Assembly (NCBI GenBank): GCA_051866635.1
Contig: JBJDXJ010000046.1
Coordinates: 1 to 64,000 of the forward strand
Length of the DNA: 64,000 nucleotides
Reading direction: 5' to 3'
DNA from: Clostridia bacterium
GTDB taxonomy: Bacteria > Bacillota > Clostridia > UMGS1883
Shown here piece by piece: positions 30,765 through 38,493 of this stretch (its first letter is position 1; the number at the start of each line of letters is the position of its first letter). The notes under the pieces are model-generated. The model ran no database searches and was not told where the DNA came from. It saw only the letters and a program-made list of their open reading frames with translations. The translations under genes were made by a program, and so were the position numbers.

Positions 30765-30925
30765 GTGCACAGGAAATGGCATATGCCCCCGAAGGAGTAA
30801 CACTCTCAGGTGCCGCAAGGTGAGGACTGTGTGCTGATAGCAATCCGGAGAAGCTCGTTTTTACACGGGTGCCGAAGGTGCAAAATGCAGAAATGCTTAA
30901 TCTCTCAGGCAAAAGGACGGAATTT
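30765..30925 (+). ncRNA. Tandem glycine riboswitch
   Basis: Two aptamers, each GGA..CCGAAGG...CTCTCAGG...GGAC; upstream of an alanine/glycine:cation symporter. Confidence 0.9.
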
Positions 30926-31027
30926 TACTCATTTATAATGGGTTTATTTTGTTTTATTGTTTTGAGAGCTAAGCTTATCGCTTGGCTCTTATTTTGTTCT
31001 ATTTTATTTGTAAAGGGGTTTAGTAAA

Positions 31028-35673: not shown

Positions 35674-35828
35674 GTTAACACCTTCTTTTACTCATGGACT
35701 ATATTCTACCATATAATATACGTAAGTGCAAATGTTTTTATAGAATTTATACTATATTATGCTTGACAACTTTTTCTGCATATGATAGTATAAAATTACA
35801 AAATATTACAAATTCAGGAGGGTATTTT

Positions 35829-36443
35829 ATGGACAGAGTTACATTGAAGAAAACTGCGTTGGAACAGATTAAGGGCAAAATAGGACTTTTGTTCCTTATT
35901 GGGCTTATTCAAGTGGGATTTTCGATAGTTTTATCGTTTATTCCTGTGGTGGGAAATATCGTGTACAGCTTTGTTTTTGCACCTGCGTTCTTTCTTTCCG
36001 AGGCAATAATTTATTTAAAGCTTGTTAATGGGGAAGCATTTTCCGTGTCAGATGTTTTCGCAGGCTTTTATGATTTGTGGTCTGCTATAAAGGTTAGCTT
36101 TTTTATTACACTTTTTACATTTTTGTGGAGCCTTCTTTTCTTCATTCCCGGTATAATTAAGGGTATATCATACTCCATGTCTATGTATATTTTAGCTGAA
36201 AATAAAGGCATGGGTGCCCTTGAAGCAATTAGCCGTTCCAAGAAAATGATGCACGGTCATAAGATGGATTTCTTCGTTCTCCGGCTTTCTTTCTTAGGTT
36301 GGATAATTTTAGGTATTTTCACACTGGGTATTCTTTACATCTGGCTTGTCCCCTATATGAATGCAGCTTATCTTAACTTCTACAACAGCATTAAGCCTCA
36401 CAACGAAACTCAGAGCGTTAATGACGATTTTATCAGGGAATAA
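35829..36443 (+). CDS. DUF975-family membrane protein
   Basis: LWSLLFFIPGIIK..SYSM..YI.AEN, S.KMM.GHK, LW.VPY-like motif; promoter TTGACA(35763)-17-TAGTAT. Confidence 0.88.
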   Translation: MDRVTLKKTALEQIKGKIGLLFLIGLIQVGFSIVLSFIPVVGNIVYSFVFAPAFFLSEAIIYLKLVNGEAFSVSDVFAGFYDLWSAIKVSFFITLFTFLWSLLFFIPGIIKGISYSMSMYILAENKGMGALEAISRSKKMMHGHKMDFFVLRLSFLGWIILGIFTLGILYIWLVPYMNAAYLNFYNSIKPHNETQSVNDDFIRE

Positions 36444-36497: not shown

Positions 36498-36577
36498 GTA
36501 AAAGCCAAACAATTTAGTTATCCGTGTTATTTATTAGATTATGCTATAAATTTATCTTCATTAGCGAAATATGCCTT

Positions 36578-36660
36578 TTACATTTGCGAAGCAAATATTT
36601 CACAACGAAGTTATTTCACAATGCGTTAGCATTATTTCACACGCCGTAAGGCGTATTTCG
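36578..36660 (+). repeat. Array of four mini-hairpins spaced by ATTTCAC
   Basis: ATTTGC-gaa-GCAAAT atttcac AAC-gaa-GTT atttcac AATGC-gtta-GCATT atttcac ACGCC-gtaa-GGCGT atttcg. Confidence 0.85.
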
Positions 36661-36696
36661 TTAAAAAAATGACTTGTCGAAACAAGTCGTTTTTTC

Positions 36697-36862
36697 TGGT
36701 GGATCTTTAGTTCGTACGTTAAGAAAACAGTCCGGTGGACTGTTTTTAGTCCGAAGTCCCTGCGTGCTGAAAACGAGCAACTCTTTGCGATGTTTGAAGC
36801 CGCCCGAAGGGAAGATTCACCAAAAAATGCCCTTTTGCATTGGCATGCAAAAGGGCATTTTT
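36697..36862. repeat. tRNA-tail element with direct and inverted copies of the tRNA-Ile2 3' end
   Basis: 36697-36710 matches 36863-36876 (13/14); 36811-36874 is a palindrome with 30 bp arms and 1 mismatch; AAAACAGTCC-ggt-GGACTGTTTT at 36724-36746. Confidence 0.75.
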
Positions 36863-36939
36863 TGGTGGATCTTCAGGGACTCGAACCCCGGACCGACCGG
36901 TTATGAGCCGGTAGCTCTAACCAACTGAGCTAAAGATCC
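36863..36939 (-). tRNA. tRNA-Ile2 (CAU anticodon, lysidine type; Met(CAU) less likely)
   Basis: 77 nt cloverleaf GGATCTTTAGCTCAGTTGGTTAGAGC...CT-CAT-AA...GTTCGAGTC...ACCA, body typical of Firmicute Ile2. Confidence 0.9.
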
Positions 36940-36941
36940 GT

Positions 36942-37017
36942 TGGCTCCTCCAGCTGGACTTGAACCAGCGACATCATGATTAACAGTCATGCGCTCTACC
37001 GACTGAGCTATAGAGGA
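36942..37017 (-). tRNA. tRNA-Asn (GUU)
   Basis: 76 nt cloverleaf TCCTCTATAGCTCAGTCGGTAGAGC...CT-GTT-AA...GTTCAAGTC...GCCA. Confidence 0.96.
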
Positions 37018-37039
37018 ATATTATTAAATCAGCTTTTTT

Positions 37040-37068
37040 ATTATAATACCATCAATAGATTTTGTCAA
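37040..37068 (-). promoter_or_regulatory. Consensus sigma-A promoter of the tRNA pair
   Basis: TTGACA-17 nt-TATAAT. Confidence 0.85.
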
Positions 37069-37200
37069 GGGGAAATGTTAAATTTTTTAGTAAATTTTTT
37101 AAATTTTCACCAAACTTTAACTTTACTTTTGCTTCAGTCGGTGTTATAATTCATTTTTGGTGTAGGACACCATATATTTTATTATAAGGAAGCGATCAAA

Positions 37201-38493
37201 ATGTCAAGTATTTTATTATCTGTTTCCATTGCCCTCTTGGGCGGTCTTTTGATGACTCGTGCGTTTAAGCCTTTGAAATTACCTTCTGTAACGGCATATC
37301 TTATTGCCGGTGTCCTTATAGGACCTTATTGCATAGGCAGAATCGGTATTTCCGGTATCGGCTTTAACACAATGGAGGCTGTAGAAGCTTTAGGTATTAT
37401 CTCCGAAGTTGCATTAGGCTTTATTGCCTTTTCAATCGGTAGTGAGTTCAGATTAAATGATTTGAAGAAAACAGGTAAGCAGGCAGTTGTAATAGGTATT
37501 TTTCAGGCTGTAGCTGCAACTATTTTAGTTGATTTAGCTCTTTATGTACTGTATCTTTTAATTCTGGGTGCGATTACTGTTCCCCAGCTTTTGACTTTAG
37601 GTGCAATCGCTACTGCAACAGCACCTGCGGCAACACTTATGGTTGTAAGACAGTACAAGGCAAAGGGTCCTTTGACAAACCTTCTTTTGCCCATCGTTGC
37701 ATTGGACGATGCTGTTGGTCTTGTAGTATTTGCCGTATCCTTCGGCATTGCAAAAACACTTATTTCAGGCACTGTTGACATGGTTTCTATCATTGTTAAC
37801 CCCTTGGTTGAAATTGTTGCATCTCTCCTTTTAGGTTCTGTTATGGGTTGGCTTCTTACTCAGCTTGAAAAGATGTTCAACTCCAACACAAACAGACTTA
37901 ACATGACAATTGCTTTTGTTATGATGACAGTTGCACTTTCCAAGTTGGAGTTTCATATAGGACCTGTACACATAGCATTTTCTTCACTTCTTGTATGTAT
38001 GATGCTCGGTACAATTTTCTGCAACATCTGTCCCCTTTCTCATGATTTAATGGGCAGATCCGATAAGTGGACATCTCCTCTTTCCGCACTTTTCTTTGTT
38101 ATCAGCGGTGCAGAATTGGAACTTAGTGTATTTACAAGTGCAATCGTTGTTTTAATCGGCGTTGTTTATATTGTATTCCGTTCCTTGGGTAAATATTTTG
38201 GTTCTTTTGTAAGTGCAAAGTTTACAAAGTGTGAACCTAATATATGCAAGTACTTAGGTATTACACTTCTTCCCCAGGCAGGTGTGGCATTGGGTATGTG
38301 CACATTGGCGGCAGAAGGACTTGGTGCAGATGGTACTCTTGTTCGTAACATAACACTTTTTGCAGTTCTTGTTTATGAACTTGTCGGTCCTTTGTTGACC
38401 CGTATGGCACTTACAGCCGCAGGTGATATTAAGCCCATGAGCGAAGAAGTAAAGATGAGAAGACATAACATGTTAAAAGAAGTAAATAAGTAA
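37201..38493 (+). CDS. Cation:proton antiporter (CPA family)
   Basis: ALGFIAFSIGSEF, ATAPAAT, VALDD, FFVISGA, LLPQAGVA; multi-TM. Confidence 0.88.
   Translation: MSSILLSVSIALLGGLLMTRAFKPLKLPSVTAYLIAGVLIGPYCIGRIGISGIGFNTMEAVEALGIISEVALGFIAFSIGSEFRLNDLKKTGKQAVVIGIFQAVAATILVDLALYVLYLLILGAITVPQLLTLGAIATATAPAATLMVVRQYKAKGPLTNLLLPIVALDDAVGLVVFAVSFGIAKTLISGTVDMVSIIVNPLVEIVASLLLGSVMGWLLTQLEKMFNSNTNRLNMTIAFVMMTVALSKLEFHIGPVHIAFSSLLVCMMLGTIFCNICPLSHDLMGRSDKWTSPLSALFFVISGAELELSVFTSAIVVLIGVVYIVFRSLGKYFGSFVSAKFTKCEPNICKYLGITLLPQAGVALGMCTLAAEGLGADGTLVRNITLFAVLVYELVGPLLTRMALTAAGDIKPMSEEVKMRRHNMLKEVNK

Follow-up and report, generated by a model that had tools for sequence, protein, structure and literature searches.

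This locus raises the question of what kind of element keeps a seven-nucleotide spacer constant while the hairpins between the spacers are all different. It is a short array near a pair of tRNA genes, in a stretch of 64,000 nucleotides from a Clostridia bacterium, which we call the window. The initial annotation had described four hairpins with different stems, closed by C-G and separated by an invariant heptamer. It had suggested a strand-specific landing pad for a multimeric protein or a mobility signal, possibly part of an undescribed system. We have compared the array with known RNA families, with the rest of its genome (G000) and with related genomes, which are numbered in the same way. 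Cn is a contig of the genome named, Lnnn is a locus with an array or a gene, and + is the forward strand of the window. The features of the locus are collected in Table 1.

Table 1. Features of the hairpin array and its surroundings. Positions refer to the window. For hairpins and heptamers, + indicates the strand on which they are read.
Feature	Position	Strand	Details
Unrelated convergent ORF beside the array	35694-36443		
Arm-2 remnant	36564..36577	-	ATTTCGC (degenerate ATTTCAC) and X' (GGCATATTTCG)
Hairpin 1	36582-36596	+	ATTTGC-GAA-GCAAAT
Rfam Gut-1 (RF01706) match	36592..36663	-	57.9 bits, gathering score 50; model positions 1-77 of 77
Heptamer ATTTCAC	36597-36603	+	exact; GTGAAAT on -
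Hairpin 2	36604-36612	+	AAC-GAA-GTT
Heptamer ATTTCAC	36613-36619	+	exact; GTGAAAT on -
Hairpin 3	36620-36633	+	AATGC-GTTA-GCATT
Heptamer ATTTCAC	36634-36640	+	exact; GTGAAAT on -
Hairpin 4	36641-36654	+	ACGCC-GTAA-GGCGT
Degenerate heptamer ATTTCGT, then TA	36655-36661	+	
Two-way terminator-like hairpin	36663..36696	.	A7, stem 36671-36677/36682-36688, T6
Separate repeat of about 125 nt	36697..36821	-	terminates in a degenerate tRNA-Met 3' end (...AAAGATCCACCA)
tRNA-Met	36863-36939	-	
tRNA-Asn	36942-37017	-	
Promoter-like site of tRNA-Met/tRNA-Asn	37068-37040	-	

The array of hairpins and heptamers is not a chance pattern. The four hairpins and the constant heptamer can be read directly in the sequence, and the pattern ATTTCAC-N9-14-ATTTCAC-N9-14-ATTTCAC has one match in the window, with 0.00 expected from 100 dinucleotide-preserving shuffles. 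The segment 36578-36662 folds better than all 200 shuffles on both strands, with DNA and with RNA parameters: The z-scores for the two strands are -3.66 and -3.06 (DNA), and -3.72 and -4.21 (RNA). All four loops (GAA, GAA, GTTA and GTAA on the + strand) are closed by C-G and belong to the cGNAg/cGNNAg class. On the same strand, GCGAAGC is found within hairpin 1 and GCGTTAGC within hairpin 3. The same association is found in the genome as a whole. In the 2.33 Mb of G000 there are 71 segments between consecutive RYGAAAT heptamers placed 14-30 nt apart, and 27 of them form a perfect stem of at least 3 bp beside a minimal loop. In 200 draws of random segments with matched lengths, the number of perfect hairpins averages 1.43 and never exceeds 5.

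The limits of the array are somewhat different from those first proposed. The array is present from 36578 on, as had been described, but the element extends further left, to 36564, with a closing helix. Apart from one change, the segment X' of this region is the complement of 36651-36661, where the array starts. The closing helix (36564-36577 with 36649-36662) is present in the minimum-energy folds, with z-scores of -5.28 and -5.40, and competes with hairpin 4. The terminator-like hairpin that follows the array is also present, with a G+C-containing stem followed by a T run. It is two-way: The consensus terminator scan assigns it to the - strand, while the + strand has the same stem, followed by a G and then T6.

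The array is a real but truncated copy of a repeat which is already catalogued, the Gut-1 RNA motif of Rfam. The match is above the cut-off and covers the whole model, and the sequence has the Gut-1 build: three consecutive hairpins between GUGAAAU heptamers, with stems that vary among copies. It also shares the gut-Clostridia setting. Hairpin 1 of the window is the fourth one in the Rfam orientation, and lies partly beyond the paired part of the model. At the other end, hairpin 4 with the degenerate heptamer and TA (36641-36663) is the 5' start of the family, TAACGAAAT, on the - strand. No other Rfam family comes near its cut-off between 36300 and 36900 at E values up to 10; for example, RAGATH-6 has 29.9 against 170, on the + strand. 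The pattern is not an undescribed one; a match with a described Rfam family had been set beforehand as a result against its novelty.

Little has been published on Gut-1. It was presented as a likely non-coding RNA ('RNA? Y') known from human-gut sequence only (Weinberg et al. 2010, Genome Biol 11:R31, PMC2864571), is filed in Rfam as Gene; sRNA (RF01706), and appears otherwise, under the name 'Gut-1 RNA', as a structure-prediction benchmark (PMC13674262). While Additional file 1 of the same authors may say more, the main text and supplementary tables of PMC2864571 are silent on any link with tRNAs, on a second arm and on a partner protein. Our full-text search of the literature found no paper tying Gut-1 to tRNA flanks or to PF05635, a protein family of the 23S rRNA intervening-sequence and Avd-like type which is described below. 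The motif itself is therefore already catalogued, and its family-level link to tRNA flanks and PF05635 is new to print by this search.

The pattern is not unique to this locus. G000 (63 contigs, 96.6% complete, 39% G+C) contains 15 Gut-1 matches, 8 of them above the cut-off. When G000 and 60 relatives are considered, a Gut-1 match is found in 36 of the 61 genomes and is above the cut-off in 23, with a maximum of 38 matches per genome. A pattern scan of named genomes, which informs on the identity of the carriers and not on their number, gave at least 123 stretches; about 45 passed a two-hairpin filter allowing G-T pairs, and four of these are plain tandem repeats. Among the matches listed, hairpin-type carriers are labelled Clostridia, Eubacteriales, Acutalibacteraceae, Ruminococcaceae, Oscillospiraceae and Faecousia, from human and ruminant gut, and one is labelled Bacteroidaceae.

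Gut-1 as published is a single arm, filed as a small RNA. Comparison of the copies shows that it is one arm of a mirror-image element with two arms. Arm 1, which is the Rfam motif, has three or four GTGAAAT-hairpin units, and arm 2 has three or four hairpin-ATTTCAC units. The first part of a complete element consists of tRNA-CCA, an A-run-hairpin-T-run, CA-AC-GAAAT, hairpin 1 and three GTGAAAT-hairpin units. The second part starts with a segment complementary to GAAAT and to the 5' arm of hairpin 1, followed by three ATTTCAC-hairpin units and a last ATTTCAC. The complementary segment covaries with hairpin 1, with at least 6 different sequences and pairing over 8-12 nt. A second arm, defined as at least 2 reverse-complement heptamers within 140 nt, accompanies 6 of the 8 copies in G000 and 15 of the 28 best hits elsewhere. 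A tRNA gene on the same strand lies 31-40 nt upstream in 6/8 and 12/28 cases, respectively. Of 27 pairs of adjacent arrays, 26 have the same convergent topology, and the remaining pair is found where two tandem elements meet. The same build is also found with other heptamers (ATGAAAT, GTGAAGT, GTGATAT/GTGGTAT, GCGATAT, GCTAAAT and others), and neighbouring arrays have different heptamers at some loci (L041, L053, L111).

Spacers and loops are kept in the family while the stems vary, as had been noticed in the window. The 121 arrays that could be parsed contain 324 hairpins, 237 of them different, around the same few heptamers. The parser demands near-perfect stems, so all stem statistics are conditioned on them. 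C-G closure is found in 213 of the 237 unique hairpins. Read on the ATTTCAC strand, the loop has the form GNA or GNNA in 154 of the 237, with 100 of the 152 triloops and 54 of the 85 tetraloops. Simple tandem duplication would not give identical spacers beside different stems, and is rejected.

Many complete elements are directly followed by a gene whose product matches PF05635 (E values from 3.6e-28 to 6e-26) and TIGR02436, 'four helix bundle protein'. These products also match PDB 2RLD, which has 5 chains, and the S23p protein of X. campestris is described as a homopentamer (PMC4990558). The motif and the gene tend to occur together: Both are found in 32 of the 61 genomes, only Gut-1 in 4, only PF05635 in 5 and neither in 20, counts which refer to related and hence not independent genomes. 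Both are absent from single genomes of otherwise positive genera (G005, G015, G029, G040). For 10 of the 11 proteins with at least 68% identity to the G007 protein (G007:C56:420-767), a listed Gut-1 hit lies just upstream. We have also analyzed the flanks of PF05635 genes, taking the best one per genome from 30 genomes. In 21 cases the flanks contain some 7-mer at least twice and its reverse complement also at least twice; with a threshold of three, 10 cases are left. The corresponding figures for 1000 random positions of G000 are 58 and 2. At three loci (L164, L181, L188) the arms enclose the gene, one upstream and one downstream.

The type of heptamer follows the protein. In a tree of 35 proteins, 30 of them labelled by eye with 13 heptamer classes and 5 unlabelled, the labels require 12 changes, the minimum possible, while the lowest value in 200 label shuffles is 19. 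The proteins associated with hairpin-type (Gut-1-like) arrays all belong to one major clade, and those with plain tandem-heptamer arms to the other (SH-aLRT 98). Such a match is expected from the joint inheritance of a gene and its flanks, so it is not evidence of co-evolution. The co-occurrence, the adjacency, the agreement between clade and heptamer and the pentameric relatives make the PF05635 protein a good candidate for the multimeric partner, encoded in trans, which the initial annotation had imagined. Of the neighbours that it proposed to survey, tRNAs and four-helix-bundle genes are found next to the arrays, and HUH/RAYT and reverse transcriptase genes are not.

In the genome of the window this partner has a different form. 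No PF05635 ORF is found in or beside the window array. The single PF05635 match of G000 is on another contig (C58:450-815), behind a tRNA-Pro gene, and has TATTCAT-type arms without hairpins. Its product is 54% identical to the class-matched protein, which is the one that goes with RTGAAAT heptamers. Class-matched proteins (at least 68% identity to the RTGAAAT class) are present in 9 of the 61 genomes, and in only 9 of the 23 with Gut-1 above the cut-off, all counts being taken from draft assemblies which may hide genes. Most carrier genomes thus have arrays that persist without a class-matched gene, and the eight Gut-1 copies of G000, which has none, are orphans in the assembly examined. The arrays of G000 look recently copied: Those in C4 and C12 are near-identical.

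The window copy is an arm 1 with four hairpins, which has a fourth hairpin and a closing helix beyond the Rfam model and lacks arm 2. The closest paralogue, in contig C30, matches it in two blocks, with 90% and 80% identity. These blocks abut in the window; in C30 they are separated by 45 nt with two arm-2 hairpins. Within 140 nt downstream of the window array (L006), no ATTTCAC-type heptamer is found on the - strand. Only a degenerate ATTTCGC is left, so arm 2 has been deleted. The window copy is probably an inactive relic, since it has lost arm 2 and G000 has no gene for a class-matched protein.

The surroundings have also changed. The array is flanked on both sides by two-way terminators. 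Between it and tRNA-Met there are a terminator and the separate repeat of about 125 nt, which sets the array 199 nt from the tRNA. Other copies of this repeat are found in G000 (C16:62427-62508), G001, G002, G003, G004, G006, G007 and G009, often in tandem, behind tRNAs of the genus, each with a ...CCACCA end. The CCC-GAA-GGG sequence at 36803-36811, which had been grouped with the array, lies inside this different repeat and is not preserved as a hairpin in its other copies. The terminator hairpin has been duplicated together with the array in G000: An identical or nearly identical hairpin is found ahead of the copies at C49:11329 and C4:12958. Between 36300 and 37100 we have detected no promoter-like site other than that of the tRNAs. 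The left flank of the window copy has no syntenic match in the congeners. In G007, a complete element of another kind, with a PF05635 gene, comes after the same tRNA-Asn/tRNA-Met pair, which is 95% identical and is inverted with respect to the adjacent gene. The window copy adds little alone, and is mainly an example of how Gut-1 elements decay.

The reading that we favour, with a probability of about one half, combines these results. The window array is a truncated, gene-less copy of Gut-1, most likely a relic, and the heptamers would be recognition sites whose candidate reader is a pentameric PF05635 protein. The invariant heptamers would act as sequence-specific sites, displayed single-stranded between compact mini-hairpins that may be exchanged for one another. 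The most likely reader would be the class-matched four-helix-bundle pentamer, as a candidate binder only. Each of its subunits might take one heptamer, with 4-5 heptamers per arm, and the substrate may be either RNA or single-stranded DNA.

The arms are reverse-complementary in every heptamer class that we have seen, and they might simply pair with each other. According to this alternative, GUGAAAU would pair with AUUUCAC in a transcript covering both arms, and the hairpins would branch off from the resulting segmented stem. This stem would be a target of RNase III or would control translation of the four-helix-bundle gene; the one-armed window copy would be inert. Intervening sequences (IVS) of 23S rRNA provide a precedent: In the IVS of Coxiella, RNase III cleaves a terminal stem of 28 bp, and tandem heptameric repeats are found ahead of the S23p ORF (PMC4990558). 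A nested ladder of this kind is frequent in the minimum-energy folds of 23 full elements, mostly with DNA and partly with RNA parameters. At five loci (L166, L169, L170, L173, L191) a ribosome-binding site immediately follows the last heptamer, and two of them (L169 and L170) have a promoter-like site before arm 1, which would place both arms in the mRNA leader. Nevertheless, the pairing between heptamers of arm 1 and arm 2 has no position-specific enrichment: It is perfect in 53 of 78 cases in the mirror register, and in 152 of 246 other combinations. Pairing alone does not require heptamers to stay constant beside drifting stems, leaves the loop rule and the fixed topology unexplained, and does not account for the solo arms, which are common (the second arm is missing in 13 of the 28 best hits). 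The constancy of the heptamers beside variable stems, together with the lack of position-specific covariation, makes a constraint other than pairing between arms seem likely. We consider the paired stem, the main rival of the reading that we favour, unlikely as an explanation.

The IVS which carry an ORF, as in Coxiella burnetii (S23p; PMC4990558) and in Leptospira and others cited there, have a protein of the same PF05635/TIGR02436 family and terminal inverted repeats built from heptamers. Gut-1-type elements differ in three ways: They follow tRNA genes instead of lying within rRNA, they have a different small hairpin between every two heptamers, and both arms are usually 5' of the gene rather than around it. 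The window copy, in contrast to an IVS cassette, has neither the PF05635 gene nor the second arm.

The strand on which the hairpins fold is the next point. On the GTGAAAT strand, only 2 triloops and no tetraloop have the GNA/GNNA form; the same loops read T-N-C (100/152) and T-N-N-C (54/85). The rule is mirror-symmetric between the arms, as the tRNA-sense strand has TNC in arm 1 and GNA in arm 2, so the loop rule does not by itself show single-stranded DNA. Imperfect pairs give an additional indication. When all hairpins are pooled, the GTGAAAT strand has 16 A-C and 3 G-T pairs. We have dropped this pooled count as evidence for the arm found in the window, because arm 2 alone is responsible for its signal. 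There are 10 G-T and no A-C pairs in arm 2 on the tRNA-sense strand, while arm 1, which is the type found in the window, has 3 G-T and 4-5 A-C pairs and is uninformative. Within the 23 fully oriented elements, arm 2 has G-T:A-C counts of 4:0 and arm 1 of 1:1. The excess of G-T pairs thus indicates that arm 2 folds on the tRNA-sense strand, and the stems of arm 1 have no strand signal. For arm 1, the Rfam strand is favoured only by the A-U and U-G pairs in which the heptamer ends take part. In the window, folds with DNA parameters are nearly equal on the two strands (-13.3 and -13.2 kcal/mol). Neither a pure RNA nor a pure single-stranded DNA reading explains all the strand observations.

A signal in single-stranded DNA, independent of the four-helix-bundle protein, is an improbable alternative. 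The mini-hairpins would form on the ATTTCAC strand, which has its 3' end outward in each arm, and would delimit a small element that inserts at tRNA 3' ends, or would act as priming or landing sites. The strong loop rule with its C-G closure favours this alternative. Triloops are more abundant than tetraloops, and 21 of the 54 GNNA tetraloops are not GNRA, which fits the DNA mini-hairpin class GCGNAGC/GCGNNAGC (PMC13037366; d(GNA) loops, PMC3201870). Hairpins 1 and 3 of the window and the loop rule of the family match this class, with the single-stranded state as a candidate reading here, and RNA versions of these mini-hairpins are described as much less stable (PMC13037366). The natural cases known so far, from priming sites of phages or plasmids and from N4 promoters, consist of one hairpin each and not of arrays with fixed spacers. 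The wobble counts do not support the ATTTCAC strand in arm 1. With the mirror-symmetric loops and with arms in the mRNA leader at several loci, the case for strand-specific single-stranded DNA is not made.

The same alternative may be judged by signs of mobility, which are mixed. Mirror-symmetric arms are expected of transposon-like ends, and insertions concentrate in the 3' flanks of tRNAs. Among five congeners, the 3' flank of tRNA-Leu(tag) is completely different, and several inserts end before a duplicated tRNA 3' end. These are mobility-like features, in line with the mobility signal proposed for the array. On the other hand, no recombinase, HUH/RAYT or reverse transcriptase gene linked to the arrays was found. 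The two PF01797 (Y1_Tnp) matches of G000, C46:95288-95482 (with an internal stop) and C38:210807-211049, do not lie beside any array, so that no array of this genome has a Y1 HUH gene next to it, and the single RVT_1 match is on another contig, apart from the arrays. The comparison of congeners gave no clean pair of empty and filled sites: At tRNA-Leu(tag), terminators and inserts differ in each of them. A phage origin has been set aside, as two loci (L238 and L309) are Gut-1-like among the 121 pattern matches listed from viral contigs, which also speaks against a single-stranded DNA signal.

A more ambitious proposal would unite Gut-1, the ORFs of 23S rRNA intervening sequences and PF05635 in one undescribed system of mobility or processing. 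The arms would be the working ends of a tiny mobile cassette, of a new kind, that homes to tRNA 3' ends, and its sole protein would be an Avd-like pentameric four-helix bundle, reading one heptamer per subunit on the single strand whose 3' end points outward. Gut-1 copies would be non-autonomous, MITE-like derivatives. We find such a system quite improbable as a whole.

A free-standing small RNA transcribed from the - strand, as filed in Rfam, is the least probable of these alternatives and very doubtful: It has in its favour the Rfam model and the 'RNA? Y' entry of PMC2864571, the A-U and U-G pairs at heptamer ends, which lengthen every stem on the - strand only, and an RNA-parameter fold which is stronger on that strand (-25.2 against -20.1 kcal/mol), but a terminator separates the tRNA from the motif, which has no promoter-like site beside it and is half of a mirror-image element, multi-copy and often truncated. 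The loops are a further point against it. Read on the - strand they are UNC and UNNC, and we know of no stable RNA class with such loops.

Two other known systems are close to these elements. REP/BIME sequences (REPIN) are short extragenic hairpin repeats, present in many copies, often behind terminators, with far fewer genes for candidate cognate RAYT proteins in trans. Gut-1 resembles them in its many extragenic hairpin repeats and its far fewer candidate partner genes in trans. It differs in having a four-helix bundle as the candidate partner, and not a Y1 HUH transposase, in conserving the spacer and not the palindrome, and in a copy number of tens, not hundreds. The second system is that of diversity-generating retroelements. 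PF05635 proteins resemble their Avd protein (PDB 4DWL compared with 2GSC; PMC10053308). In the loci that we have read, no reverse transcriptase or template/variable repeat pair adjoins the PF05635 genes, in contrast to Avd.

In summary, the locus in the window is a decayed member of a family with a characteristic build. The different strand evidence of the two arms is an added observation on this family. Gut-1 has been in Rfam since 2010 without a known function, and PF05635 is a large family which likewise has no known role outside diversity-generating retroelements. The link between them, with a heptamer type for each protein clade, gives both orphans a concrete partner that can be tested.

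Comparison of positions 36851-37944 of the window with a locus of the congener G007 (L020, contig C56) shows that, in the window, the tRNA-Asn/tRNA-Met pair has an inverted orientation with respect to the gene beside it (37201-38493). In G007, the tRNA pair, a full element of the Gut-1 repeat, a gene for a four-helix-bundle protein (PF05635) and the counterpart of this neighbouring gene are all co-linear.

The genome containing the window has a single PF05635 gene, found behind a tRNA-Pro(ggg) and a terminator. Its upstream region presents about five TATTCAT-like heptamers, followed by inverted AATGAAT heptamers, and hairpins are absent between heptamers. The same hairpin-less arrangement is found in five related genomes: G006, G019, G041, G049 and G053 (loci L182, L185, L187, L189 and L192). 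In two other loci, L171 (G055, contig C16) and L174 (G052, contig C39), the PF05635 gene carries AATTGAAA-type arms; a duplicated 5' part of tRNA-Leu precedes the gene and an intact tRNA-Leu follows it, as if this cassette had integrated into the tRNA-Leu gene.

Coordinates of the features (G000 is the genome containing the window, C-numbers are its contigs)
Feature	Location	Strand	Details
Complete two-arm element	G000:C38:97933-98003	-	32 bits against the Gut-1 model
~125-nt repeat	window 36697-36821	-
~125-nt repeat, another copy	G000:C16:62427-62508
Glycine riboswitch aptamer	window 30835-30930	+	Rfam RF00504, 56.9 bits, cut-off 32
PF05635 gene, only one in G000	G000:C58:450-815		arms in upstream 231-449

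In the two-arm element of contig C38, GCGATAT/ATATCGC heptamers replace GTGAAAT, and its upstream neighbour is a protein gene, not a tRNA. A complete Gut-1 element is also found in L238, an 842-nt locus whose contig is classed as viral. There it is followed by two further tandem repeats: An 11-nt unit repeated four times and a long run of CTATCTG-type heptamers.

A stretch of about 250 nt (G000:C49:21680-21926), whose end resembles a tRNA 3' end (...CTGCCCCTGCCA), separates tRNA-Trp from a Gut-1 copy, and an insert behind tRNA-Leu in G009 (contig C29) resembles it. The ~125-nt repeat is found behind tRNAs in 8 of the 9 congeners, frequently as tandem copies, and runs of TATTCAC-like heptamers often stand ahead of it. 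It terminates in a copy of the 3' end of the adjoining tRNA (...CCACCA), followed by its own terminator. This repeat has the appearance of a mini-insert flanked by att sites at the 3' ends of tRNAs.
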